Below, piece by piece: positions 1 to 14,649 of a stretch of DNA of 22,968 bases. The notes below the pieces were generated by a model. That model saw nothing but the letters and a program-made list of their open reading frames with translations, searched no databases and was not told the DNA's origin. The DNA lies in the NCBI GenBank assembly GCA_016840855.1, contig JAEORO010000033.1:1-22968 (forward strand), given 5' to 3'. The stretch comes from Candidatus Thorarchaeota archaeon (lineage in GTDB: Archaea > Asgardarchaeota > Thorarchaeia > Thorarchaeales > Thorarchaeaceae). The translations under genes were made by a program, and so were the position numbers. Each line of letters begins with the position of its first letter. The stretch's first letter is position 1.

Positions 1-311
1 ATCTTCACCCGGTCCTCATTCAGTCCCAGTTGACCGACCAGCTTTCGTGCAAACCTGACTCTGCGTTCCGCGCCTAAGTTCCCTGTCTTGTAAGCACAGT
101 CACCAGGATGGCAACCAACCACTAGCACTCCATCTGCTCCCTCTTGCAGTGCCTTGAGTAGGAAGTTGATGTCCAGTCGCGCGGTACATGGCATGCGGAT
201 AATCCGGCTTGTGATGTCGTACTGCAGTTTCATGGTCCCTGCAAGGTCGGACGCAGCGTACATACACTGCATACAGCCGTAGACTATGATGTTCATGTCC
301 TTTGGTGGCAT
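1..311 (-). CDS. mvhD: Stand-alone MvhD-type hydrogenase/Hdr [2Fe-2S] subunit (3' end runs off the window)
   Basis: Not in the ORF track. Manual translation from ATG at 311 gives MPPKDMNIIVYGCMQCMYAASDLAGTMKLQYDITSRIIRMPCTARLDINFLLKALQEGADGVLVVGCHPGDCAYKTGNLGAERRVRFARKLVGQLGLNEDRVK..., with the MvhD motifs CxxC, RxPC(T/S)xR and GADGVLVxGCHxGDCxY. SD-like GGTGA upstream. Confidence 0.95.
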   Translation of the reverse strand, partial: MPPKDMNIIVYGCMQCMYAASDLAGTMKLQYDITSRIIRMPCTARLDINFLLKALQEGADGVLVVGCHPGDCAYKTGNLGAERRVRFARKLVGQLGLNEDRVK

Positions 312-1474: not shown

Positions 1475-2674
1475 CTAGAAATCTGGAGGTTTTTCATTAT
1501 ACCACTTTGGTATCTTATCCATGGCGGGCTCATAACCACTGAGTACATGACGACCAAGGATTAGTCTTTGTACCTCGCTGGTCCCTTCATAGATTTGGTA
1601 GAGTTTGGCATCTCTGAAGAGCTTCTCGAGCGGGTATTGGTCAATGTATCCGTACCCACCATGGATTTGAAGGGCTTCACTTGCTATTTCCATGGCTGCG
1701 TCAGTGGCATATGCTTTTGCTACACTTGCAGGGACCGTGGCATCTCCAACATTATCTGTTGTCCATGCGGCCTTCAAGTATAGTGCTCTTGAAGCCTCTA
1801 TTTTTATGTACATTTCTGCTAATTTGAACTGAATCACTTCAAATTCTCGCAGTTTTTGAGTGAACACGTCTCGTTTGTTGACATAATCCCTTGCATACTC
1901 CATAGCAGCGCGTGCCAAGCCTGTGGCAAAGGCGGCAATTGAAGGTCGGGTCATAGCGAAAGTTTTCATAGCTATTCCAAAGCCTTTCCCCTCACTGCCC
2001 AAGATGTTTTCTTCAGGCACCTTGGCATCACGAAACATGACAGAAGATGTCGTAGATGCTCTATGCCCCATCTTTTCAACAGGACGACCTGTTTTTACTC
2101 CTGGAGTATCTGCATCTACAATAAAAGCACAAAGAGATTTATGCCGCTGGCTTGGATCAATGCTTGCAAAGACTGTAAAATAATCTGCATGAGGCGCATT
2201 TGTTATCCAAAACTTTGAACCATTAAGCACATAGTTACTTCCCTCTTTCTTTACCCGAGTCTGTATTCCAGCAACATCTGAACCCATGCCTGGTTCGGAA
2301 CATGCAAAACTGACGAATTTGAGGTTTTCAGTGAGTGGACGTAGATACTTCTCCTTTTGTTCATTTGTGCCAGCTACAAGTATTGGTTCAGCACCTAATG
2401 TGTTCACATAGATGCTAGTGGTCATCCCTGCGCACCCAGCAGCCATTTCTTCCACTGTGATACATTGTTCGATTGAGCCCAAGCCGGGACCTCCATACTC
2501 CCTTGGGATGGACAAATTCATGAGTCCTTCCTCCCAGCACTTCTGAATTATCGGACGCGGAAACTCCCCAGTTTTGTCATAGTAGTGGGCATGGGGAATC
2601 ATATATTCTTGTGCAAACTTTCTAGCTCTGTTCTGTAGCTCCTGTTGTTCATGTGTCAGTCTGAAGTCAACCAT
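1475..2674 (-). CDS. acd: Acyl-CoA dehydrogenase (short/medium-chain type)
   Basis: FACSEPGMGSD, LNGSKFWITN, GGYGY and IYEGTSEVQR (catalytic Glu at the MCAD/SCAD position); GAGGGAG SD. Confidence 0.95.
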   Translation of the reverse strand: MVDFRLTHEQQELQNRARKFAQEYMIPHAHYYDKTGEFPRPIIQKCWEEGLMNLSIPREYGGPGLGSIEQCITVEEMAAGCAGMTTSIYVNTLGAEPILVAGTNEQKEKYLRPLTENLKFVSFACSEPGMGSDVAGIQTRVKKEGSNYVLNGSKFWITNAPHADYFTVFASIDPSQRHKSLCAFIVDADTPGVKTGRPVEKMGHRASTTSSVMFRDAKVPEENILGSEGKGFGIAMKTFAMTRPSIAAFATGLARAAMEYARDYVNKRDVFTQKLREFEVIQFKLAEMYIKIEASRALYLKAAWTTDNVGDATVPASVAKAYATDAAMEIASEALQIHGGYGYIDQYPLEKLFRDAKLYQIYEGTSEVQRLILGRHVLSGYEPAMDKIPKWYNEKPPDF

Positions 2675-2713
2675 TGTACTCCCTCAAAGGATTTGCAGTT
2701 TCTGACATCTTCT

Positions 2714-2758
2714 CAATTGTATAAGTCAATTGCTAAAGGGCAATGAAGTAATTCAATG
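2714..2758 (-). promoter_or_regulatory. Putative acd promoter with a periodic CAAT(T)G array
   Basis: Minus-strand TTATAC box lies between two CAATTG palindromes (2714, 2727); further CAATG copies at 2741 and 2754. Confidence 0.4.
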
Positions 2759-2764
2759 GTCAAG

Positions 2765-5029
2765 CTACGAGGTTGATGTTATGTGTCTTACAACTTCCGG
2801 CAAGTTCCACTTTAACTCCAGTTCCAAGGCTCCACCTTCAGGTCCTGGACATCTCCTGACACAGGTCCGGCAAGCAACACAGAGCCAGAGGTCTACTTCA
2901 ATTGAACCAAATCCTGGAGCGTCATTTGTGAGAAGAATTTCCTTTGAGGGTTTTATCTTCGCAAGGTTTTGCACAGTTTTGTAGAAAAGGGAACGATTAG
3001 ATGGTAATTGAGAGAGAGCTTCATCAGAGATTTCAAAAAACTTGGATATCTCGATTCGAGGCTCTAACTCAATCGCATCCTCGGGACATGCAATCTCACA
3101 AGATTTGCAACCGATACACCTTGATTGCTCCCATTCGATTGTCCCAAATCCAAGCAAAGGCGCATAACCCATCTGGTTTCTATACTCATCAAGGACTGAT
3201 GGTACATCAACATCTGCTAAATCGTCAATAGAAACCTTTGGTCTTGTGCTGGGTATCTTTGCGCGAGTGCGGTAAGCAAGCAAGAGAGCTGATCGTATTT
3301 TGTCTTCGACTTCGTTCAGTGTGGCTTCATCAATCACAGCACCACTCACACGTACTGATGCAAGTTTGTCACGAGCCTTTGAAAAGACTTCTAGAGAGTT
3401 AGCTAGCTTCCCAATATCAGATGCGTTCAATTCGCTCAGAATTCTCTGCAACTCTATCGTGGCTTCAGAGAGTTGCAGTGCAAGCGAACATGTTGTTTGA
3501 ATGGTGATTTCAGCTTCTGACGGTGTTCTAGGTACGTCATAGAGTACATAACCATGGCTCTCACCAGCAATGGTGAGAAGTTCATCGCGTTTCATTCGTA
3601 ACAGATGCCTGAGAATCCTGTCCTGCGGAATAGTTGTTCTCTCAGCAAGGTCATGTGCTGTGAGAGCTCCTAGTTCTCTTATCAAAATCAGGATTGTTCC
3701 TCTTTCGAGCTCATTCTCGAGATAGGAGTCCATCATTGTTTGATAGACTTCAGGATCCAGTTGTTCTCCGTAGACATTAGTTCCAGACACGAGATTTGGG
3801 CCCTTCTCCAAGGCGATTTTCAGACGAAAGCGTGCAAAAGCCTCGAGACCTGCTGAAACTAGAAGTCTGAGGTTTTTAGCATCATCAGTTGTTTGGGTAG
3901 TAAGAACTGCTTGAGTGGTATTATCAACAAGCTCTCTCAGCTTGTTCATTGATTCCGAAAGCTCGCTCTCTTCATAAGTTCCCAATATTTGTAGCCGTTC
4001 TAGTAATGTTTGTAATTTCTCAAGTGATGTGTTTGCACTGTCAATCAGATCATGGTCAAGTGACTTGACCATTCCACGAACCTGTTGTACTATTCTTTTC
4101 ATGACCAGAGTCGAGTTGGGTATTTCGGTAAGAACCTTGGAGAATACCGGAGCATCTCCATCAAGGCCAACCATCTCAACTTCACCTCTTTGAATCATTG
4201 TAACAATAGCATGCTGTATTGTTTGTGGGGAGGTCTGCATGAGTTCTCCTATCTGAGTGACTGTCTTGGAACCCATTTTTCCAAGAACAAACATAATTAC
4301 TCCGCGATTTGCTTCATTGAGCATGTTTTCTAAAACGAGTATGTGGAAACGGGACTCGTCAATTCGTCCTTCTCGCTTCCCTCGCTTGATTTGAGCAGTA
4401 GATCTCAATCCAGGGCCATACCTTGTTTGAGAGCCAAGGGTTTGAAGCTTGTCTAGAGCTATGTCAGGGTCAGTTTCAGCCATTGACTTTGCTTCATTGA
4501 GATTTTCAATTAAGGACACAAGCTCAGCTTGAGCGGATTTTGCTTCTGATTCCGCGTTCTTCTCAAATCCGTCTGTGATTGATTCTATTTCGGCTATCAA
4601 GTCAGCTAGTGTGGAAAGGTTTGTAGCCATATCTATCTGGATAGAAGGTCCATGTATTTCCTCAGCCTCAGTCATTCTAGTTAAAGCAACGGTTAGCAAC
4701 TGTTTTAGTTCTTTGAGAAGTTTGGAATCAACTTTTGATAATCCTGTATCAAGATTAGAGATAGCTTGTTTGAGAATTCCCCGATCATGTATCTCAGAAA
4801 CAGTGTTTCGTTTCTCAATTGTATTTAGGAACTTCTCATAATAAGAGTCGGGAAATGCGAGAATGGCATCGGTTAATGGTGCTAATTCTGTTTTAAGATT
4901 GTCAAGCTCCTCCTTAACCTTACTGAGTGGAATTGTCGCCTCTTCTTTGAGACCACCAAGAGCCAGAATCATATCCAGCATGCGTTGCCTCTTGGGAGCA
5001 ATTGCTTTCTCTGATGTTGATTGACTCAT
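2765..5029 (-). CDS. Uncharacterised 754-aa helical protein with two winged-helix-like repeats and a C-terminal 2x[4Fe-4S] ferredoxin domain
   Basis: CIGCKSCEIACP and CVACRTCVRRCP motifs; repeated NExxRGxI...GxxTxxxIxE HTH-like units; ATGA overlap with the upstream hdrA-mvhD fusion. Confidence 0.85.
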   Translation of the reverse strand: MSQSTSEKAIAPKRQRMLDMILALGGLKEEATIPLSKVKEELDNLKTELAPLTDAILAFPDSYYEKFLNTIEKRNTVSEIHDRGILKQAISNLDTGLSKVDSKLLKELKQLLTVALTRMTEAEEIHGPSIQIDMATNLSTLADLIAEIESITDGFEKNAESEAKSAQAELVSLIENLNEAKSMAETDPDIALDKLQTLGSQTRYGPGLRSTAQIKRGKREGRIDESRFHILVLENMLNEANRGVIMFVLGKMGSKTVTQIGELMQTSPQTIQHAIVTMIQRGEVEMVGLDGDAPVFSKVLTEIPNSTLVMKRIVQQVRGMVKSLDHDLIDSANTSLEKLQTLLERLQILGTYEESELSESMNKLRELVDNTTQAVLTTQTTDDAKNLRLLVSAGLEAFARFRLKIALEKGPNLVSGTNVYGEQLDPEVYQTMMDSYLENELERGTILILIRELGALTAHDLAERTTIPQDRILRHLLRMKRDELLTIAGESHGYVLYDVPRTPSEAEITIQTTCSLALQLSEATIELQRILSELNASDIGKLANSLEVFSKARDKLASVRVSGAVIDEATLNEVEDKIRSALLLAYRTRAKIPSTRPKVSIDDLADVDVPSVLDEYRNQMGYAPLLGFGTIEWEQSRCIGCKSCEIACPEDAIELEPRIEISKFFEISDEALSQLPSNRSLFYKTVQNLAKIKPSKEILLTNDAPGFGSIEVDLWLCVACRTCVRRCPGPEGGALELELKWNLPEVVRHITSTS

Positions 5030-7191
5030 TCAGTCACCTCCATCCACTTCCCTGCAGTACCTTCATGGACTGGAGTAGGACCTAGCTCCTTGGCACGTTT
5101 CACCATTTCATTGACCGCATTTGTGAAGCGTTCAGGCTCTGCACTGAACATCCTAAACATGCCAACACGTTTGCCCTCCCAGCCAATCGCTTTCAAGATA
5201 TCTTGAGCAACATCTACCTGTACCTGAGCAATTTCGTTACCAGTTCCGCCTATATGACATCGGTCTTTTTCACACGCTGCTATCATTACTGTGCTGGCAC
5301 CATTCTCAAATGCCTTGAGAATATCGATGATGCTGATTCTGCCTGCACAGGGGACTGATATCAAACGTGTACTAGCTGGATATTCCATTCTTCTGGTACC
5401 AACAATGTCAATTGTAGATACGGAACACTCTTCGCAGTAGAAACAGAGCGTGATTGGATATTCAGGACCTGCGTCTTCTAGTGTGGCATCAATTTCAGAC
5501 CAAAGTTGTTCGTTAGATAGAAAATTAAGTTGAGTAGCACCTGAAGGACACAAGCTCTGACATACTCCACAAGAGTGACAATTAAAAGTGTCAATTGAAG
5601 CTTTGAACAGTAATTTTTGTTCCTCGTCAGCTTCTTCAACTTCTGTCTGTTCAATCATTAGAGGGACTCCACGTGGACACTGCTGAGCACAAAGACTGCA
5701 GCCAACACAATCATCCACATTTAGGACCGCACCGCGTGCAATAGATTGGATTTCTCCACCTTGAAGTTCATTATGAATGATGAGCGCACCAGCTTGAGCA
5801 TCTGTCACCGCTTCAAACACGAATTGAGGACGTGTGACTCCTCCGACTGCAACAACGCCACGACGACGAGTTTCATTCCTTCTTAGTTTGCCATAGAGTT
5901 CCTTCACGTGTCCATCCTCTTCAATAGCGTATCCTAGGGTTTCGGATAGCTCGGAAGTTCCAACAGGAGGGAGTACTGCTGATGAGAGAACCAGTAGATC
6001 TACTGCTGTTTCAAGATACTTGTCAAGCAAAGAGTCATAGATTCGCACATATGTAGAGCCATCTTTTTCCCAGGTCATGCTAATTCGGCCACGGATATAG
6101 TCAACACCCTTCTCACGAGACTCCTTGTATATCATCTCGTTCTCGAACGGAACTCTGATGTCCATATAGACTATCCTGACATTGGCATCAGGTATCCTCT
6201 TGAGGATTTCAAGAGAGTTATCAATAGCAAATGTACAGCATAATTTACTGCAGTCTTTCTTGTAGTTCTCATCCCTACTTCCAACACATTGCACCATTAC
6301 TACATCTTTTACCGGTTTCCCATCAGATGGTCGGACAAGTTCGCTTCTAGAGAGCATACATGAAAGCTCAAACTGAGTGATGACATTTGGATTCTTCCCG
6401 TAACGATACTCTTCCATAGATGTCGGTTTGAATTCCTTGAATCCAGTAGCTAATACTATAGCAGAGCTTGCCAAGGTCTTCTCTTCGTTGTTCTCAGATG
6501 AATAGTGAACTGTAAAGTTGCCCATCTCACCTGAAACATACTTGACCTTTGTCTTGGTCATTATCTCAATATTATCATCACTTTGAAGTGCTTCCAATCG
6601 ACCACTAAGTATCTCTTTGCCTGACTTACCTGTGGGAGCAACCACGGGAAGACTCTTGAGATGCCCTCCCAGCTCATCAGTCAGCTCTATTAGAGAAACC
6701 TTGTAGCCAAGATTTGAAAGACTAAGCGCAGATTCAATACCTGCGATTCCACCCCCGATAACTGTGACATGCTTAGAAACTTCCTTTTGCTCTAATACAC
6801 GCTTTGTGGATTTTGCAGACCTTGCAAGTGTACCGCGAATCATATCTAGAGATTTCTTATTTGCTTCATCCAAGTCTTTATGCACCCATGCAGAATGCTC
6901 TCTAATGTTCACATACTGAATTTGAGTACTGTTTGTATCCATTGTGTCAAGATAGTGATCAATTCGCGGTTGAATTTTCTGACTGGAACATGCAGCAATC
7001 ACAAGACGCCCATCACTGTTCTTGAGGAGTTCAGCAATTTTTGCTAGACCTTCTTCCTGACAGACAAAATCATGAACATTCACAGAAGAAACTAAGTTCA
7101 TTTTTTTGGCTTGAGTTTCTAGGAAGTCAAATCCCAACTGGAGCTGTTTGCCACAGGTGCAGATGAGTACCGCTGATTTGTTGTTATCCAT
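5026..7191 (-). CDS. hdrA: HdrA-like FAD/Fe-S protein fused to a ferredoxin domain and MvhD (QmoB-like architecture)
   Basis: N-terminal CxCG...AACS...NIREHSAWVH; GGGIAG FAD motif; QCVGSRD...CSKLCC; two CxxCxxCxxxCP motifs; C-terminal MvhD (CEECS, VPCAGR, AACEKDRCH). Confidence 0.92.
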   Translation of the reverse strand: MDNNKSAVLICTCGKQLQLGFDFLETQAKKMNLVSSVNVHDFVCQEEGLAKIAELLKNSDGRLVIAACSSQKIQPRIDHYLDTMDTNSTQIQYVNIREHSAWVHKDLDEANKKSLDMIRGTLARSAKSTKRVLEQKEVSKHVTVIGGGIAGIESALSLSNLGYKVSLIELTDELGGHLKSLPVVAPTGKSGKEILSGRLEALQSDDNIEIMTKTKVKYVSGEMGNFTVHYSSENNEEKTLASSAIVLATGFKEFKPTSMEEYRYGKNPNVITQFELSCMLSRSELVRPSDGKPVKDVVMVQCVGSRDENYKKDCSKLCCTFAIDNSLEILKRIPDANVRIVYMDIRVPFENEMIYKESREKGVDYIRGRISMTWEKDGSTYVRIYDSLLDKYLETAVDLLVLSSAVLPPVGTSELSETLGYAIEEDGHVKELYGKLRRNETRRRGVVAVGGVTRPQFVFEAVTDAQAGALIIHNELQGGEIQSIARGAVLNVDDCVGCSLCAQQCPRGVPLMIEQTEVEEADEEQKLLFKASIDTFNCHSCGVCQSLCPSGATQLNFLSNEQLWSEIDATLEDAGPEYPITLCFYCEECSVSTIDIVGTRRMEYPASTRLISVPCAGRISIIDILKAFENGASTVMIAACEKDRCHIGGTGNEIAQVQVDVAQDILKAIGWEGKRVGMFRMFSAEPERFTNAVNEMVKRAKELGPTPVHEGTAGKWMEVTE

Positions 7192-7200
7192 CTGTTAGTT

Positions 7201-8451
7201 TCACTTCCTACTCTGGAGAATCTTAGACACTACTGCACGTGCCTGAGTCACACTTTCAGGGACTTCTGCAGGACCCAGTGCGGTCCCACAAGCATAGACA
7301 TGATCACCGACCACGACTTCATTCTCTGAAGCTGGATCTGCGATTCCAACAAATCCACTTGCAGACTTTATTCCAAGTGTTTCAATGAGATTGTCAGTCC
7401 CTTTAGGAGGTTCGAGGGCTGACGATAGAACCAAAATGTCCACTGGAAACTTGAGATATTTGTTCAGAAGTGAGTCATAGACTGTTATATCTAAGGCACC
7501 ATCTTTTCGTGGCTCAATGAGAGAGATCCTACCTCTAACAAACTCCACTCCTGAATTTCGAGATTCGCGATAGTATCGTTCATACCTGTCATATGTACGG
7601 ATATCCATGTATACTACGCTGACTCGAACATCGTTTCTCTCCTGTGTGAGTATATTTGCATGTTTGAGAGCAAAGATACAGCAAATTTTGGAACAATATG
7701 GATAGTAGTTCTCATCCCTACTTCCAACACACTGAACCATCATCACTCGTTTTGCGGGTTTTCCATCAGACGGTCTTAACAAAACCCCACTTGAATCTCC
7801 ATTAGGATCAATAATCTTGGCCAGTTCTAGTTGGGTGATGATGTTAGGATGTTTTCCATAATAGTATTCAGCCACGTTGACTGGTTGCAACTCATGATAA
7901 CCAGTGGCAATTATGATGTCTGAAACTTGAACTGTTTCTTCTGTGGGTTGAGCACTTAGATTGATTGCCTTTGTTGGACATTCATCTTCAGCCTGTTTTG
8001 CACCATCATCAGCATTCGTTGGGTCATACATTACTGCTTGTGGTTGGCACTGTGGTGATAGTAGAAAGAAAGCCTGAGACTTTTCCATACAAAGCCCGCA
8101 CAGAGTGCATTTCTTTGGATGGATATACACAGGACCTACATTCAGTTTTACAGTAAATTTACCAGGGCGGCCTGAGATTTCGTTTACTTCACTATTCATC
8201 CTTAATGTGATGTTGGGTTGATCTGTGAGCGCGCTCCTATAGAAACACTTACGGATTCCGGGACGCCAGCGGTTCCCCTCGAAGCAGTAGAAACAGTCAT
8301 CGGTTGGAAATGCCTTGTAAAGGACCAAAGCGTTACCTCCTACTGATCTCTGTCGTTCAACTAGGATTGTTTTAATTCCTGAGTCTGCAAGCTCAACAGC
8401 GGCTGTCATACCTGCAACACCAGCTCCGATGATGAGGACAGGATTGGACAT
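7201..8451 (-). CDS. hdrA: Short HdrA-like FAD/Fe-S protein (QmoA-like length, no N-terminal Fe-S domain)
   Basis: IIGAGVAG FAD motif at the N-terminus; YKAFPTDDCFYC (cf. HdrA KTFPTxDCxxC); inserted CTLCGLC...ECP; QCVGSRDENYYPYCSKICC. Confidence 0.92.
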   Translation of the reverse strand: MSNPVLIIGAGVAGMTAAVELADSGIKTILVERQRSVGGNALVLYKAFPTDDCFYCFEGNRWRPGIRKCFYRSALTDQPNITLRMNSEVNEISGRPGKFTVKLNVGPVYIHPKKCTLCGLCMEKSQAFFLLSPQCQPQAVMYDPTNADDGAKQAEDECPTKAINLSAQPTEETVQVSDIIIATGYHELQPVNVAEYYYGKHPNIITQLELAKIIDPNGDSSGVLLRPSDGKPAKRVMMVQCVGSRDENYYPYCSKICCIFALKHANILTQERNDVRVSVVYMDIRTYDRYERYYRESRNSGVEFVRGRISLIEPRKDGALDITVYDSLLNKYLKFPVDILVLSSALEPPKGTDNLIETLGIKSASGFVGIADPASENEVVVGDHVYACGTALGPAEVPESVTQARAVVSKILQSRK

Positions 8452-8462
8452 GCTTCTTCACC

Positions 8463-9344
8463 TCATCCGGTCAGATGATCCAAAATTGGGTCTGCAGGGA
8501 CTCTGTTCATGCTAAGTCCTACTTCTTCCTCATCCATTCCCAATGCTAGACCAAGTATCTGAGGATAGAGAAGAACTGGTAAATTGTACTCTTCTCCATA
8601 GGATTCTTTCAAACCGAGCTGTTGCAAATCCAATTGATTTCCACAGGCAGGACAGACAACGGTAATGAACTCCGCCCCGGATTCTTTCATCGACTTGAGT
8701 TTGTCACGAGCCAGTCTAATTCCAAGGTTTTCGTTGACAGGAAGAATAGTCGCACCACAACACTGTTTCCATATTGGATATTCTATAACAGATGCTCCAG
8801 TGACCTTGATTAACTCATCTAGATACTCTGGTCTGAACTCAGTCACATCAGCAGGACGCAAAACGTGACAACCATAGTGAATCGCAATTCCTACGCCATC
8901 TAGAGGTTTTGTGACTTTCTTCCTAATCTCATCAATCCCAATGTCCGTATAGAGAGCCTCTACAAAATGGCGAGGGACTATTGTGCCCTTGAATTCAAGA
9001 CCTTCCTTCTTCAGTGTAGTATTGACTTTCTTTCTATAATCGTTATCATGCTTAAGAAAGTGGTAAGTGTCTTTGAGGGATCCAAAACATCCGTTGCATG
9101 GCGTAACAATGTCGTGGCCATTTTTCTCTGCAATAGCCAAGGTTCTTGCATTTACAGTGAGCCACCCGATGTAATCGATTGCACGAAGATTGGGGCTTCC
9201 GCAGCAGGCGACTCCATCCATATACTCCAATTGCATATCAAAGGCTGTTGCAACCTTAATCATTGCTGCTTCATAGTTTGGATAGTTCGCTGGCACACTG
9301 CAGCCCATGTATAAATTGTAAACTGGCACCCTACTCACCACCAC
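8463..9344 (-). CDS. hdrB: Heterodisulfide reductase subunit B (two CCG domains)
   Basis: GC...CCG...PCNGC and HYGCH...CCG...CPAC motifs; start may instead be the GTG at 9329. Confidence 0.95.
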   Translation of the reverse strand: MVVSRVPVYNLYMGCSVPANYPNYEAAMIKVATAFDMQLEYMDGVACCGSPNLRAIDYIGWLTVNARTLAIAEKNGHDIVTPCNGCFGSLKDTYHFLKHDNDYRKKVNTTLKKEGLEFKGTIVPRHFVEALYTDIGIDEIRKKVTKPLDGVGIAIHYGCHVLRPADVTEFRPEYLDELIKVTGASVIEYPIWKQCCGATILPVNENLGIRLARDKLKSMKESGAEFITVVCPACGNQLDLQQLGLKESYGEEYNLPVLLYPQILGLALGMDEEEVGLSMNRVPADPILDHLTG

Positions 9345-9888
9345 TCACAAGCTTGCCTGTCCGGGTTTCTTTCAGAATTTCTTTTACAGCATCAACTGCT
9401 AAACCCGGTACTTCAGGTTCTAAACCCATGTCTTCGCGTTCCCAGTCAGCTGTCACAGTATAGAGTTGGCCTTTCTCAAGCAGCTCTTTGCCTAGGCCAG
9501 TGATATTTGGTGGAACTTTTCCTTGTTCAGCAGCCAAGTTTTTACAGTCAAAGAAAATGTCAGTTACCCGTACTTTCTGAGGACACCTTTCTTGGCACTG
9601 GAAACATGTCAGACAAAGCCAGATTTCATCGGAAGAAAGAACTTCATCACGCATGCCTAGCAGCATCATTCTGATCAGCTGATGTGGTTTGTATTTCCAA
9701 ATGTTAGCAATTGGACATGCAGCAGTGCAGGTTGAACAAGCAAAGCAAGCTGATAGCTCATCGCCATTTGGCATGCTATGAATCTCTTCACGGAATCTAG
9801 TGTCAAGTTTCGACATTTCAATAGGATCAATCAGCGTGACTGGGAGTTCAGTGGGTTCTTTTGTTTCAGCCATGGGTACGCACCACAT
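9331..9888 (-). CDS. hdrC: Heterodisulfide reductase subunit C
   Basis: CFACSTCTAACP and WLCLTCFQCQERCP; alternative start ATG 9873. Confidence 0.95.
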   Translation of the reverse strand: MWCVPMAETKEPTELPVTLIDPIEMSKLDTRFREEIHSMPNGDELSACFACSTCTAACPIANIWKYKPHQLIRMMLLGMRDEVLSSDEIWLCLTCFQCQERCPQKVRVTDIFFDCKNLAAEQGKVPPNITGLGKELLEKGQLYTVTADWEREDMGLEPEVPGLAVDAVKEILKETRTGKLVSGGE

Positions 9889-9934
9889 GTATGCAAGGCT
9901 ATTATGCCAGTTGGCTGAGCGATTTGGGAGCCCA

Positions 9935-9948
9935 TATTAAAAGTTTGC
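9935..9948 (-). promoter_or_regulatory. Putative BRE/TATA promoter of the hdr operon
   Basis: Minus strand GCAAACTTTTAATA about 47 nt upstream of hdrC. Confidence 0.55.
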
Positions 9949-9991
9949 AGAAACGACGAACAGCATAGTTCAACGATATTATGAGTAAAAA

Positions 9992-10180
9992 TTACTCCGG
10001 AAGTCCCTTCAAGTATATCAAGCGAAGAAGGCCGATTGTGCCAAGAGAAACTACGAGCACGAAAGAAACTGGGGCCAGTATACCCCACTGGGTGTCAGGA
10101 TACTGTAGTCCACCTGCTATTGCAAGCGCTATACACACTATGCCAGTTAAGTAAAAAAGCCATTTCCTCTGCAATGACAT
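9992..10180 (-). CDS. Small two-TM membrane protein, hypothetical (62 aa)
   Basis: From ATG 10180: MSLQRKWLFYLTGIVCIALAIAGG and WGILAPVSFVLVVSLGTIGLL hydrophobic segments; stop followed by a T5 tract. Confidence 0.65.
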   Translation of the reverse strand: MSLQRKWLFYLTGIVCIALAIAGGLQYPDTQWGILAPVSFVLVVSLGTIGLLRLIYLKGLPE

Positions 10181-10220
10181 GAACTTGGCAGTGCTTACTG
10201 TACTCTTAGTACTTTCGATG

Positions 10221-10508
10221 CTAAAGGGCTTGTAGCAGCTCATATATTCTCTCAACTCTATTTTTTATGCCATCGAATGGATTTAACGAACTATTACGAA
10301 TCTCTGTACTTGTTCTGATGAGATATGACTTTAGTGCCTTCGCATTACCTTTCATTTTTATGAGCGTTGAGCTGCTCTCATCAAGTAGTCGAAGTGTGTT
10401 AGTGAGCGCAGTTTGGAATTTATCATGCTCTAAGGCGACTTGGTCACGGGATTCGTTGATGAAATCAAAGAGTGCAGATATTTCAGTAGCTATATCTTCT
10501 TTTTTCAT
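10221..10508 (-). CDS. Hypothetical all-helical protein (95 aa)
   Basis: ATGA overlap with the gins15 stop; amphipathic helical pattern; no recognised family. Confidence 0.7.
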   Translation of the reverse strand: MKKEDIATEISALFDFINESRDQVALEHDKFQTALTNTLRLLDESSSTLIKMKGNAKALKSYLIRTSTEIRNSSLNPFDGIKNRVERIYELLQAL

Positions 10509-11119
10509 TGAGAGAAATCCTCCTCAGTGACAATACGGACAACTGTGCCATCCCGTAACCAAGTTCTGGCATTAGCTGCAGGAATCATTGCAACATCTTC
10601 CTTTTTGAAAGGCCCATACGTCTTCTCATCAATACCCAAGAAGGCATCACCGATTGGTTGGAGAAATCTTACAGTCACATAATCAACCATTTCGGAGGAG
10701 GAAGCTTTGGATTCTTCTGTATCATCAGCTTTTTTTGCCTTCTTTGGTTTAGACCCAGCTAGGGAGTCTGCAATAAACTCTGTGTGACCATCAAGAGCTC
10801 GTTGGGTTCTATTGTATAGCTCTTCCTCTGCGAGTGTCATATCACCTGTAGGCTTGTGTCCAGACATGGCAGCTTTCAATATCTTTTGTCTTCGGAGTGT
10901 CAAAAGATCTTCAATCATGAACTCGAGGTTTAGAGCTTCTTGTGTGAGTACATCAGCTTGAACTCGTTTTTCAGTACCCATAGATGCTAGCGATAAACGT
11001 ACACTAGACAGATAAGAGATCATTTTGCTTAGCCGTAGGTCACCTAAATCTTGAAGACTTTCATTCTGTACTTCGTCCTCCCATGCAGATATAACATCAT
11101 TATAGCTTATCTCACTCAA
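10505..11119 (-). CDS. gins15: GINS complex subunit Gins15 (Gins51, A-B domain order)
   Basis: Helical A domain (LRRQKILKAA...LAEEELY), charged linker, C-terminal B domain VRFLQPIGDAFLGIDEKTYGPFKKEDVAMIPAANA; conserved position after priS; start re-assigned to TTG 11119 overlapping the priS stop. Confidence 0.88.
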   Translation of the reverse strand: MSEISYNDVISAWEDEVQNESLQDLGDLRLSKMISYLSSVRLSLASMGTEKRVQADVLTQEALNLEFMIEDLLTLRRQKILKAAMSGHKPTGDMTLAEEELYNRTQRALDGHTEFIADSLAGSKPKKAKKADDTEESKASSSEMVDYVTVRFLQPIGDAFLGIDEKTYGPFKKEDVAMIPAANARTWLRDGTVVRIVTEEDFSQ

Positions 11120-12500
11120 TGATAGCAACTCCTTTGCATAGTACAAATGCTGCTGCCGCTGTTGGTAATTCAACAGATTCTCCGTGATATGGACCATAGG
11201 TTTCATCACCAATTCTAAAAGACGGAACACCAGGAGATTTGCGCAGGAACTTGACCTTCATTTGTCCATCACTAAAGACAATCGCATCGAGAAAAGGATC
11301 GAAGTCGTCTAGTTCATCTCTGGTAAGCTTATTGACTATAAATCCAGTCTTTCCGTTTAGACTACCAATTAGACGAATGACTCTATGAACATCATGTGTC
11401 ACCGGACGGTCTATCTCACCACCATAGAATTCTGCTGCTTTCTCAGCGATTTCTTGCCACGACTTCAATCCAATATCCTTTGCTTCTTTGTTTAAAATAG
11501 GGGGAGTTCTTAACAGTCCATCAAGGGCCGCGACTTTTCCTTTTCTAAGCGGTTTGACCCATCTTTCAGTTCCATCGTATGAATCTATGTTTCGCACAAA
11601 ATTAACAATAGCATCAGCTATCTTACCAGCCCATCCTGGAAAGACTCGGTCTGGTATTCTGTCCACACCACCTTGATTAACAATGACTTTCTCAGTATTG
11701 AAACCTAACCCCATAACGTAGTGTACTATCTGAATACGACCGTTCGAGTCAAGTGTATAGACTCGGGGATCACGAACGCGAATGTGATATCCTCTATGAC
11801 CACTGTAATTGAGTTGAATGGATTCAGGATTGAACCCAAAATCATTAACGATGAAATCATCATAGAGTTTCATTGTGTATTTCTTAGCTTCAGCGAGACA
11901 ATTCTCACATACCCACTTTCTTGTACTGAAACTTGTACCATCACAGTCTGGACAACTTTCAGGAGGAGTGCCAATGCCAGTTCTATGACAATCCTCAGCA
12001 TTACATCGCCATGCGTCATGGTCTTTTGCACATGGTAATTCTAGATGATCTGCATCAATATCGAAGACAAGCTCAGCTCCAAACCATTCCTTTTCATTCA
12101 TATGTCGTGCAACGGGAATCTTATAGAACGCAGCTGAATGATAGACGCTGTGAGGAGCTACTGATGCTAAATCTCGGACAAGTTCATCACGGTTCAAATA
12201 ACCTACATGTCGTTTCCATGTAGTTGTCTGGATGTCAGTAGATCCACAATTTGGACATTTTTTAACATTTGAGAATGATGTTCCAGACTGCCCACATCCT
12301 ATTGTCTTATCCCGTCCAGCCTCGTCACGACTTTTCCTCATAGGACAATACCAGTTGTATTCCCAACTTTGAATACCAAACTCCCTATTGTGTATCTTGT
12401 CAGGAATGTCAATAGATTCAGGGTTGGACTTGTAGTACTCATGGAACATGAATCGCAGTTTCAAGACCGTGCTTGTGAAACCTTGGCTCTGACTTGACAT
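11112..12500 (-). CDS. priS: DNA primase catalytic (small) subunit with two Zn-ribbon-like insertions
   Basis: REFG, YHSAAFY, ELVFDIDAD, YSGHRGYH and IDRPVTHDVHRVIRLIGSLNGKTG motifs. Confidence 0.95.
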   Translation of the reverse strand: MSSQSQGFTSTVLKLRFMFHEYYKSNPESIDIPDKIHNREFGIQSWEYNWYCPMRKSRDEAGRDKTIGCGQSGTSFSNVKKCPNCGSTDIQTTTWKRHVGYLNRDELVRDLASVAPHSVYHSAAFYKIPVARHMNEKEWFGAELVFDIDADHLELPCAKDHDAWRCNAEDCHRTGIGTPPESCPDCDGTSFSTRKWVCENCLAEAKKYTMKLYDDFIVNDFGFNPESIQLNYSGHRGYHIRVRDPRVYTLDSNGRIQIVHYVMGLGFNTEKVIVNQGGVDRIPDRVFPGWAGKIADAIVNFVRNIDSYDGTERWVKPLRKGKVAALDGLLRTPPILNKEAKDIGLKSWQEIAEKAAEFYGGEIDRPVTHDVHRVIRLIGSLNGKTGFIVNKLTRDELDDFDPFLDAIVFSDGQMKVKFLRKSPGVPSFRIGDETYGPYHGESVELPTAAAAFVLCKGVAIIE

Positions 12501-12550: not shown

Positions 12551-13306
12551 CTATCTTCGTTCTACACGTGGTGCAAGGACGAAGCTTATACTTCCAGCTT
12601 CTGCTATTGGAAATTCCAACATCATTGGTTTATTGGATGTGAATTGAAGCATTAAGCTGTCACTAGCAATCGCTTTTGATATTTCGCTAAGGTAATTGAG
12701 TGCATACATTGCTGCTGATTTACCTGATACTTCAAGCTGGAAAAGCGCCGGAGCATCACCCTTAGTTGTTAATGCGACATTGGCTTCGCCTGTATCACCT
12801 TCACCAGCAAAGGTGAGTTGTTCTGATTCTGCGCTGATTTTCACATGACTAGAAACGACTCCTATGTCTTTGATTGCTTGTTTAAAAGTGTCAGCTAATA
12901 ATTCTGCTTTCGCATCAAATTGAATTCCAGGCTTCTTTGTTTGTTCATCTGGTGGCGTGAGGAGCTGAAGTTTAAACACCCTACTCGCTTGCCCGACCAT
13001 TCTAATTTCAAACCGTTTTTCAGACTCATCAAGATTAAACTCAAGGTGCTCGTCTCCAGCCATCCTTTTGCTCACCTTAGCAAGTTCATCAATACCTAGG
13101 CAAATGTCGTGTTCGCCCTTACATGAATACTCTTGAAAGATTCCAGATGGCAGGGTCAAATCAACCATTGCGGCTTTTGAAGAGTCGAGCTGACGAAGTG
13201 ATATTCCGGATTCAGACACACGAAAATGTGCTTCTGTAAGCAAGGTAGCAAGAGCATCAACAATCTGTTTCCAGGTTTTGGTGCTATCGAGAGTCGCGTG
13301 AAACAT
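12551..13306 (-). CDS. pcn: PCNA sliding clamp, paralogue A
   Basis: LDSSKAAMVDLTLP, FQEY, NKPMMLEF and C-terminal FVLAPRVE signatures; 251 aa. Confidence 0.95.
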   Translation of the reverse strand: MFHATLDSTKTWKQIVDALATLLTEAHFRVSESGISLRQLDSSKAAMVDLTLPSGIFQEYSCKGEHDICLGIDELAKVSKRMAGDEHLEFNLDESEKRFEIRMVGQASRVFKLQLLTPPDEQTKKPGIQFDAKAELLADTFKQAIKDIGVVSSHVKISAESEQLTFAGEGDTGEANVALTTKGDAPALFQLEVSGKSAAMYALNYLSEISKAIASDSLMLQFTSNKPMMLEFPIAEAGSISFVLAPRVERR

Positions 13307-13355
13307 GCCATTATCTCCAATTGTCTGTTAATTAGCGAACTGATATTTGAGGCAA

Positions 13356-13372
13356 AATGATGTAACATCATT
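13356..13372. promoter_or_regulatory. Perfect 17-bp palindrome AATGATGT-A-ACATCATT upstream of pcn paralogue A
   Basis: 8-1-8 inverted repeat in the 184-bp inter-PCNA spacer, about 20 nt downstream of a minus-strand AAAGATATAG box (13390-13399). Confidence 0.55.
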
Positions 13373-13490
13373 AAGCAGTCAGTGTCGCTCTATATCTTTG
13401 AACTAGATTCTCAAAATGGATTCCGCATTTAAAATGTGCCTCTCGGTAGAGTAAAACTCTCCTTTATAGGCAAAACAGAATAGCTTGTCT

Positions 13491-14243
13491 CTACCTTCTC
13501 TCTATTCTTGGAGCTAAAAGGAATTTAATGACTCCACCTTCTGCAATTGAGAATTCAAGCATCACAGGTTTATTCTCAGTCATTCGGAGGGTTAAGGTGT
13601 CACTCGAGATTGCTTTCGCAATTTCTGAAAGGTAAGACAGAGCATACATCGCAGTGGCATCTTGTTTCGCCTCTAGCTGATATAGTAGAGAGTCATCACC
13701 AAGGTTCAAGGAAACCTCAGCTTCACCAACATCACCAACCCCACCAAAGCCTAGTGATTCCTTTGTTACTGTGATTTTCATATGGTTAGAAACAACTCCG
13801 ATGTCCTTTACGACCTGCTTGAACGCATCAGAGAACATTTCAGCATGTGTTTCGAATGTTGGACTAATTTTTTTGGTCCTCTCTTCTGGGGGTGTCAATA
13901 GTTGAATCTTGAATGTTCGTTCAGCTTGACCGATCATCCTAATCTCAAACCGATTCTGAGATTGGTCTAGATAAAATTCAAGTCTATCATCACCAGCGAT
14001 CCGTTTACTAACTTTGACGAGCTCGTCTAATCCTAAACTGACTTCGTATTCGTTTTTGCAGTTATATTCTTGGAATATGCTTGATGGGAGAAAAAGGTCG
14101 ACCATTGCAGCTCTTGAGGAGTCGTATTGAGTCAGTGAGATTCCATCATTTCTGACTATGAAATGAGCTTCTGTGAGTAATGTTGCCAAGGCATCAACAA
14201 TTTGCCTCCATATCTTGCTACTTTCAAGAACTGCGTGAAACAT
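13491..14243 (-). CDS. pcn: PCNA sliding clamp, paralogue B
   Basis: Same signatures (YDSSRAAMVDLFLP, FLLAPRIE); start set at ATG 14243 to match paralogue A, with a GAGGA SD upstream. Confidence 0.95.
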   Translation of the reverse strand: MFHAVLESSKIWRQIVDALATLLTEAHFIVRNDGISLTQYDSSRAAMVDLFLPSSIFQEYNCKNEYEVSLGLDELVKVSKRIAGDDRLEFYLDQSQNRFEIRMIGQAERTFKIQLLTPPEERTKKISPTFETHAEMFSDAFKQVVKDIGVVSNHMKITVTKESLGFGGVGDVGEAEVSLNLGDDSLLYQLEAKQDATAMYALSYLSEIAKAISSDTLTLRMTENKPVMLEFSIAEGGVIKFLLAPRIERR

Positions 14244-14256
14244 CTTTGTCCATTCC

Positions 14257-14649
14257 TCATTCACTCATTGTTCTAGTCACTTTTCCCTCCATATCTCTAA
14301 CTTCTTTATAGAGCGCAATATCAAGTGTATCGATATCATGAGCGATTGATGCATTCAATCTAAGTTCTTTTCCAGTGTCTATTGTCTTTTCTGTCACTTC
14401 TCCAATGAACATGTATTTTTTACTCACTTCGAGTGATCCTTCAACGCTGACTTGAATTTTCCCTGCATTTTTTACATCATCATCGAATATGTCTTGGACT
14501 AGTACCAGGCCTGGACTAGCATCAACAACAATGCCCATTATTCTAACTGGGCCACGAGTATCTGAAGATAGTTTTCGTATCGTAGTGAGTTTAGATGGTT
14601 CTCGACGAGGGAAGCTCTTTTCTTCGGTCACTTTAATTACACCACTCAA
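14257..14649 (-). CDS. Single OB-fold protein, RPA14/RPA3-like ssDNA-binding subunit
   Basis: RREPSKLTTIRKL, VRIMGIVV, YMFIGEV and IAHDIDTLDIALYKEVRDME resemble Thermococcales RPA14 (from memory of the family); replication-gene context; start TTG 14649 or GTG 14631. Confidence 0.7.
   Translation of the reverse strand: MSGVIKVTEEKSFPRREPSKLTTIRKLSSDTRGPVRIMGIVVDASPGLVLVQDIFDDDVKNAGKIQVSVEGSLEVSKKYMFIGEVTEKTIDTGKELRLNASIAHDIDTLDIALYKEVRDMEGKVTRTMSE

Follow-up and report, generated by a model that had tools for sequence, protein, structure and literature searches.

The stretch of DNA analyzed here (the window; positions 1–22,968 of contig JAEORO010000033.1, assembly GCA_016840855.1, from a Candidatus Thorarchaeota archaeon) carries a heterodisulfide reductase (Hdr) operon with an additional open reading frame (ORF) at 2765–5029 on the minus strand, the 754-amino acid product of which is referred to as protein X throughout. 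X is a real, conserved and apparently undescribed iron–sulfur subunit, and it is likely dedicated to an asymmetric HdrA'/HdrA''-MvhD/HdrBC complex. In the arrangement proposed here, the ferredoxin domain of X would plug into the entry port formed by MvhD together with the C-terminal ferredoxin of HdrA'' and relay electrons there, and its helical bundles and winged helices would scaffold a donor module instead of binding DNA. The segments of X, in window coordinates, are as follows.

2765–5029, minus strand: protein X (754 amino acids), a putative split Hdr-associated ferredoxin with an insertion of ~560 residues
4955–4996, minus strand: N-terminal helix (residues 12–25), the probable twin of helix 678–690 and first helix of a ferredoxin repeat
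4460–4927, minus strand: long helical region 1 (residues 35–190), the least conserved part, with a mean column identity of 0.50
4130–4462, minus strand: module 1 (residues 190–300), head helices and winged helix 1
3890–4117, minus strand: helical bundle 2 (residues 305–380), within the duplication of ~200 residues
3530–3877, minus strand: module 2 (residues 385–500), a complete long-MvhD-tail module including winged helix 2
3260–3517, minus strand: helical bundle 3 (residues 505–590)
2768–3259, minus strand: ferredoxin domain (residues 591–754), predicted to hold two [4Fe–4S] clusters, with cysteine motifs at 3083–3118 and 2846–2881
2960–2998, minus strand: helix 678–690, predicted to pack on MvhD helices 620–629 and 660–671

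The ferredoxin domain carries CxxCxxCxxxCP motifs at residues 638–649 and 717–728, preceded by GFGTIE and GFGSIE, respectively, as the first-pass annotation of this DNA had already recognized. The eight cluster cysteines are invariant in 47/47 aligned homologs; besides these motifs and Cys514, X contains no cysteine. The C-terminus of X belongs to an uncurated family of 160–169-amino acid, two-repeat Asgard Hdr ferredoxins, and a word-based search for the 160-amino acid ferredoxin recovered at least 16 close relatives. The repeat unit of these small proteins consists of a KR- or NR-led helix, a proline-rich linker, GFG and the cluster motif. A stand-alone member lies directly after hdrA''-mvhD, in the gene slot of X, in loci L047, L169, L171 and L173, and the small ferredoxin is fused to MvhD in L048 and L051. 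The L051 fusion (7046–8005, minus strand; 319 amino acids), on host-genome contig C86, has an hdrA gene on either side and belongs to a further hdr operon.

In X the second ferredoxin repeat is complete, and the first motif lacks its own adjacent helix. When a position-specific matrix made solely from the first helix of the small ferredoxins was scanned over 47 X homologs, the best match outside the ferredoxin domain fell within the first 30 residues in 31/47 of them, which are related rows and not independent tests; in the 754-amino acid X itself, the N-terminal window was the best of the entire chain. K13 and R14 are invariant in 47/47 homologs, and M17/M20/I21/L24 are in register with F682/T685/V686/L689. 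From these sequence comparisons we infer that X is a small two-fold pseudo-symmetric ferredoxin of ~160 amino acids, with ~560 residues inserted after its first helix.

Docking was addressed by predicting a complex of X residues 378–754 with HdrA''-MvhD residues 478–721, using three runs and three controls. The prediction scored 0.87 in the three runs versus 0.00 for the best control; the mark applied is reached by 116/157 solved complexes and 2/215 mismatched pairs, a calibration that is only roughly valid with the alignments used. Contacts agreed to at least 87%, with a partner predicted local distance difference test (pLDDT) value of at least 59, and all confident X contacts fell within residues 639–732. 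Helix 678–690 is predicted to pack on MvhD residues 620–629 and 660–671, and the residues around cluster A (C638/641/644/727) to touch those around the HdrA'' cluster C495/498/501/548. Module 2 and its winged helix form no part of the confident interface in this prediction, which counts neither way. The earlier annotation had proposed complex modeling with the Hdr subunits; binding to HdrA''-MvhD was indeed predicted, with the ferredoxin domain rather than a winged helix providing the confident contact. As far as the available portions of PMC9012536, PMC12350162 and bioRxiv 10.64898/2026.04.10.717634 describe it, solved Hdr complexes use the predicted surface as their donor entry route. X thus probably docks by its ferredoxin domain at the HdrA''-MvhD entry port. 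Taken with its linkage to hdr genes and its homology to long MvhD tails, both described below, the prediction supports the initial suggestion of an Hdr partner.

The predicted partner and the remaining features of the operon are listed below.

5026–7191, minus strand: hdrA''-mvhD (721 amino acids), the predicted partner, with an N-terminal domain, a flavin adenine dinucleotide (FAD) domain, a C-terminal ferredoxin and MvhD
7201–8451, minus strand: hdrA' (416 amino acids), with an FAD-proximal lysine motif and a CxxC with the Cys197 equivalent, lacking the N-terminal domain
8463–9344, minus strand: hdrB, with both CCG motifs kept
9331–9888, minus strand: hdrC
9936–9949, minus strand: conserved B recognition element/TATA-like element upstream of hdrC, its anchor pattern matched in 41/55 loci
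2719–2728, minus strand: conserved TATA-like element upstream of acd, in 45/68 loci
3–311, minus strand: orphan mvhD, truncated by the contig end, a candidate second partner

An ATGA at 5026–5029, in which the start of X overlaps the stop of hdrA''-mvhD, agrees with the translational coupling originally reported. The two HdrA proteins are complementary: a lysine follows the CSxxCC motif in 58/58 relatives of HdrA', whereas aspartate occupies this position in 63/63 relatives of HdrA''; the N-terminal domain is found in HdrA'', and the CxxC that includes the Cys197 equivalent in HdrA'. The HdrA' lysine aligns with a lysine of a methanogen HdrA and is presumably the FAD-N5 lysine. HdrA'' has no inserted ferredoxin, and HdrA' has a degenerate one. 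Complementarity of this kind has been proposed for heterodimeric HdrA pairs in the accessible text of PMC9012536, and the Lys/Asp difference fits the Lys280/Gln768 asymmetry of BamE given in the portion available of 10.64898/2026.04.10.717634. The pair (5026–8451, minus strand) resembles a split BamE. Downstream, acd follows X after 90 bp, its own TATA-like element suggesting separate transcription, and X is plausibly the last gene of the operon.

Within the proposed complex, electrons would pass from a donor to cluster B, cluster A, the HdrA'' C-terminal clusters, the MvhD [2Fe–2S] cluster and the HdrA' flavin, at which they would either be bifurcated between HdrBC and an acceptor of low potential or run in the opposite direction. 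In the cassette-bearing relatives described below, NAD(P)H on the same chain would act as the donor; on the 754-amino acid form, the donor would dock in trans.

A polyferredoxin-like alternative, in which X binds HdrA''-MvhD as an exit or storage arm that carries off low-potential electrons, appears rather unlikely, although several features are compatible with it. A catalytic donor domain is absent from the 754-amino acid form; since HdrA'' is without the inserted ferredoxin and that in HdrA' is degenerate, the complex may lack the usual exit; and Hdr complexes are able to run in reverse. However, X has two clusters only, its relatives carry a dehydrogenase-type cassette, and the predicted docking falls on the entry port, while it is the inserted ferredoxin domain that MvhB binds according to the part of PMC12350162 available. 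Since the predicted docking coincides with the place where electrons enter solved Hdr complexes, X suits the role of an input arm better than that of an exit arm. The structural or electron-exit arm envisaged earlier is therefore retained as a predicted arm on HdrA''-MvhD, with input favored over exit.

The presumed insert in the ferredoxin contains a duplication. Unit 1 (RIDESRF...RGEVEMVG; residues 222–288, positions 4366–4166) and unit 2 (QLDPEVY...RDELLTIAG; residues 423–489, positions 3763–3563) align with a pairwise score of 53, reached by 3/2000 shuffles, and a longer alignment of residues 132–269 with 329–469 scores 70, reached by 0/500. Profile–profile comparison of the repeats (98.5%, E = 3.9e-15, 151 columns) extends the duplication to ~200 residues, comprising a winged helix and the helical bundle after it. 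Both units lie inside the ranges first assigned to them and are alike beyond chance, but the repeat is longer than claimed. The N-terminal helical region was considered as a third repeat and rejected, since hhalign gave it only 2–2.5%. Pfam MarR_2 matches residues 246–287 (whole-protein score 27.5, cut-off 27), TrmB/HTH_5 weakly matches residues 446–489, and an AlphaFold2 model shows helix–helix–helix–strand–strand at 241–298 and 441–498. Module 2 superposes on a Z-alpha domain with Z 12.3 and 1.2 Å root-mean-square deviation (rmsd) over 62 residues. The expectation that the repeats would model as winged helices thus held.

Searching 1.84 billion representatives with a 118-position profile, which covers module 2 together with its relatives, yielded 517 matches at E ≤ 0.001. 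Of the best 150, 54 contain MvhD sequence, 74 are proteins of at most 155 amino acids that stand alone or are fragmentary, eight are full-length two-module proteins, five are unrelated multi-helix-turn-helix (HTH) repeats and nine fall outside these groups. The 54 proteins consist of MvhD plus a winged-helix tail of ~115 amino acids homologous to module 2, and one 268-amino acid MvhD carries the NVYGE motif, as the X module does; the likeness to long-MvhD extensions, as originally suggested, proved correct. The module forms the tail of 244–268-amino acid MvhDs, makes up a small gene inside hdr clusters, and lies between mvhD and mvhG-mvhA in L050 and, as a 78-amino acid version, on host-genome contig C51; it is also found at the N-terminus of an FrhB/FpoF-like F420-binding protein (L058:6454–7872, plus strand; and P0132). 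The MvhD [2Fe–2S] core (PF02662) has no match in X. The first-pass view of X as a duplicated MvhD-associated winged-helix module with its own iron–sulfur relay is upheld in its tail homology and duplication, and a split small ferredoxin holding a large insertion is the better description of X. A 449-amino acid protein (P0257) combines one module, one helical bundle and the ferredoxin, representing either a shorter architecture or a fragment. Contig C51 of the host genome (G000) holds, at 2251–12394 on the minus strand, a large hdrA with the cassette, hdrC, hdrB, two hdrA, mvhD, the 78-amino acid winged-helix gene, mvhG and mvhA.

The presence of two true winged-helix folds, with Z-alpha, ArsR, MarR and TrmB-type nucleic-acid binders as the best structure and profile matches, raises the question of whether X binds DNA or RNA, either as an iron–sulfur factor that senses redox state or as an Hdr subunit that moonlights through its winged helices. 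Several Arg/Lys residues of helix 3 in module 2 are invariant in 85 close homologs, but these basic residues vary in 10 distant ones, and winged helix 1 is missing altogether from the 972-amino acid relatives. Winged helix 1 has a mean net charge of -2.0 (positive in 3/47) and winged helix 2 of 0.1 (positive in 16/47), compared with +3.3 (positive in 19/23) for MarR-like control domains of the host genome. This charge test is weak, because MvhD tails (+2.4; positive in 23/32, hand-picked from the 54) are as basic as the controls; stand-alone modules average +2.0 (positive in 22/30, picked from the 74). No conserved palindrome was found at the hdrC or acd promoters, the two that were searched, and at most 3/41 loci share the centre of any inverted repeat at the hdrC promoter. 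A sigma-70 scan gave chance-level counts, its consensus being unsuited to an archaeon. Moreover, the module family is fused to or stands beside redox subunits, and BamF, the closest characterized analog, uses its winged helix on protein, which disfavors the DNA-binding reading. A nucleic-acid-binding X is unlikely, and DNA-binding regulation by X is unsupported. With no palindrome at the operon promoter and an acidic module 1, the earlier idea of coupling Hdr redox state to nucleic-acid binding was not sustained. Automatic "ferredoxin/MarR regulator" labels on the X family are probably wrong.

Larger relatives of X carry a flavoprotein within the chain. In a 972–980-amino acid form, a 468-residue GltD/NfnB-like flavoprotein (PF14691, PF07992) begins directly after RYG, at the position following G205 (~4415 in window coordinates), and takes the place of winged helix 1, bundle 2 and the module 2 head. 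A third form, resting on one contig (L179:3–3329, minus strand; >1109 amino acids, truncated by the contig end), has the cassette at the same site and keeps both winged-helix modules. Trees were quick and FastTree trees; in a FastTree of 70 rows and 210 columns, covering the stretch that the rows share, L179 groups within the 754-amino acid forms (support 99) and not with the seven other cassette rows, and the starred branches force two changes. By this sequence phylogeny, we infer that the cassette was gained at least twice, with L179 apparently independent. The cassettes of the 972–980-amino acid form and L179 are 59–62% identical; that of L179 is 53–57% identical to the inserts of 1087–1135-amino acid HdrA proteins of related genomes, and the host genome has a copy on contig C51. 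A GGGNAA...YRR motif in the cassette presumably indicates NADPH. No catalytic donor site was detected in the 754-amino acid X by Pfam or NCBIfam. A purely structural clamp or assembly factor, with clusters that carry no flux, would suit the mostly helical, poorly conserved chain and the lack of an identified donor for the 754-amino acid form, but is highly improbable given the eight cysteines invariant in 47/47 homologs, the predicted contact between the surroundings of cluster A and the HdrA'' cluster, and the insertion of a flavoprotein into the chain at least twice.

X is nearly universal in its family. Relatives with names are mostly Ca. Thorarchaeota. All 24 of 24 same-genus genomes matched, 18 with the 754-amino acid form, five with the ~972-amino acid form and one in fragments. 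Among 300 genomes drawn from the phylum, 76/76 of the same family matched, and X was present, whole or partial, in 75; the remaining genome, G270 (62% complete), has only a paralogue. Outside the family, full-length X was found in at least 2/224 genomes, a lower bound as three candidates were scored per genome. Distant full-length clusters (20–25% identity) are Helarchaeota or Lokiarchaeota where named.

The linkage of X homologs to hdr genes was confirmed by the neighborhood survey. In 66/75 loci hdrA''-mvhD lies upstream of X, abutting in 65 and separated by 2.7 kb in one, and eight of the nine other loci are cut by the contig start. Two loci from other families, L167 and L168, have the order hdrA' > hdrA''-mvhD > X > hdrC > hdrB, without acd; in L167 (5469–5714, plus strand), an MvhD ORF ends after 81 residues, which could reflect selenocysteine read-through or a break. 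A functional partnership with acd is not supported. This gene follows X in 67/75 loci, but primase, GINS and PCNA are similarly linked (49/52), acd has its own promoter-like element, and it is not beside X in L167 or L168; as the neighborhood is conserved as a whole, the link was not taken as functional. An apparent X–acd fusion in L090 is a run of N. Elsewhere in the window, two ORFs of 87 and 95 amino acids (9992–10508, minus strand) lie between a GINS-like gene and hdrC, are present in many relatives and have no confident Pfam match, and two tandem PCNA-like genes occupy 12551–14264 (minus strand), where many relatives show one.

Family and structure searches placed X in no characterized group. 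Searches by sequence in Pfam, NCBIfam and PDB turned up nothing beyond generic ferredoxin and HTH matches, and no curated family or solved structure spanning the whole protein was found in Pfam, NCBIfam, PDB, Foldseek or ESM Atlas. ESM Atlas returned one cluster, with Thorarchaeota as the commonest taxon and Fer4 as its sole name. Foldseek returned nothing at E ≤ 0.001 for a first AlphaFold2 model, whose C-terminus was poor (pLDDT 63). Winged helix 2 dominated the wide structural search, in which the remaining segments were barely sampled. A match of a second AlphaFold2 model to RPC62/RPC82, the tandem winged helices of RNA polymerase III (Foldseek E = 2.5e-4), was rejected, as template-modeling (TM) scores of 0.08/0.12 and an rmsd of 36.6 Å point to a shared repeat architecture without global fold similarity. 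Structural matches over residues 35–589 weakly indicate that the first and last helical segments may pack together, which suggests that the N-terminus would return to the ferredoxin domain. A literature search judged by titles and abstract openings, with most subscription papers and supplements outside its scope, found no published description of such a subunit; what the available portion of PMC11237513 notes on the topic is multiple and fused hdrA copies in Thorarchaeota.

The closest known parallel is the class II benzoyl-CoA reductase of Geobacter metallireducens. In the portion available of its report (10.64898/2026.04.10.717634), BamF is >100 residues longer than other MvhDs, its winged helix interfaces with BamI, and BamI passes electrons to the BamE C-terminal clusters. 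To that extent, X shares with BamF/BamI a winged-helix module and an iron–sulfur relay to HdrA C-terminal clusters, together with an asymmetric HdrA pair in which one FAD site bears a lysine and the other does not. Unlike BamF, X lacks the MvhD core, combines two tail modules and a relay ferredoxin in one chain, and has long helical bundles; the Thorarchaeota system has no BamGH or BamBC, and its HdrB keeps both cysteine motifs. Like MvhAG, FdhAB and ElpAB on MvhD/ElpC, as presented in the accessible parts of PMC12350162 and PMC9012536, X is predicted to dock on MvhD with a [4Fe–4S] cluster beside the HdrA C-terminal ferredoxin. It has no hydrogenase, molybdopterin or F420 site, however, and matches these subunits in sequence only by the generic ferredoxin motif. 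HdrA with an NfnB-like insertion, presumably the protein named HdrL, offers a further comparison. In HdrA9–11 of anaerobic methanotrophic (ANME)-1 archaea, as far as PMC9012536 is available, the NfnB-like insertion resides in HdrA itself; in X relatives the cassette sits in the accessory subunit instead, and the 754-amino acid X has none. The polyferredoxins MvhB and FwdF are likewise Hdr-associated ferredoxin-type relays, whereas X has eight cluster cysteines for two clusters only, scores far below the NCBIfam cut-offs and is predicted to bind on the entry side. MarR/ArsR/TrmB regulators share the winged-helix fold, but in X this fold is embedded in a redox-operon subunit with an acidic-to-neutral surface, and no operator was found.

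Several observations weigh against X as an input arm scaffolding a donor. The score of 0.87 is the model's own confidence, obtained with a partner pLDDT of 59–65, and the prediction may borrow from solved MvhD–donor complexes, although X resembles no solved MvhD donor subunit beyond the ferredoxin motif. The second AlphaFold2 model, of the whole chain, had a predicted TM score of 0.40, which leaves the domain arrangement uncertain. X is likened to BamF by description, and no BamF chain is among the listed PDB matches. No role was obtained for the winged helices of X, and the invariant basic residues of helix 3 in module 2, a helix highly conserved within Thorarchaeota, like the basic MvhD tails that weaken the charge test, count on the same side. 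L123 has no hdr match in the 3.2 kb upstream, and L125 is the locus with the 2.7-kb gap. Finally, the entire neighborhood, including primase and GINS, is conserved in the family (49/52 loci), and because the whole region is syntenic down to its replication genes, gene order alone is weaker evidence than it appears.

A more elaborate arrangement, which we regard as a tentative possibility, is that X is a two-headed connector, each repeat helix docking one MvhD beside one cluster and thereby wiring two MvhD/HdrA units in series. Helix 678–690 would take the HdrA''-fused MvhD and its N-terminal twin, which has the invariant K13/R14 and the same hydrophobic face, a second MvhD; the two-fold pseudo-symmetry would put that N-terminal helix next to cluster B, in the way that 678–690 is placed next to cluster A. 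The second MvhD would most plausibly be the orphan MvhD encoded a few kb downstream, and the inserted winged-helix arm would act as a swappable socket onto which an NAD(P)H oxidoreductase was grafted at least twice. The orphan mvhD is matched in 64/81 family genomes (21/23 of high quality), the best copies being mostly 83–100% identical, and lies at most 9 kb downstream of X in 17/37 loci with enough sequence. The host genome encodes nine MvhD domains, and an MvhD tree (131 columns) lacked the resolution needed to give the orphan a partner type. Genomes with the 972-amino acid form keep the orphan mvhD though this form lacks the module 2 head helix, which argues against that helix as its sole anchor. 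The orphan gene (3–311, minus strand) has no adjacent hdrA and sometimes occurs in several copies per contig.

Thorarchaeota and related Asgard archaea possess several Hdr-type complexes, and the near-universal X marks the predicted electron entry of the most conserved one. Helix 678–690 on MvhD provides a testable interface, and the 972-amino acid form, with its own flavoprotein, represents a natural self-contained version for in vitro assay. The proposed role of X would mean that archaea, too, employ winged helices for docking proteins in the manner of BamF. If true, the two-headed connector would give HdrA-type electron bifurcation a new principle of wiring in archaeal relatives of eukaryotes.

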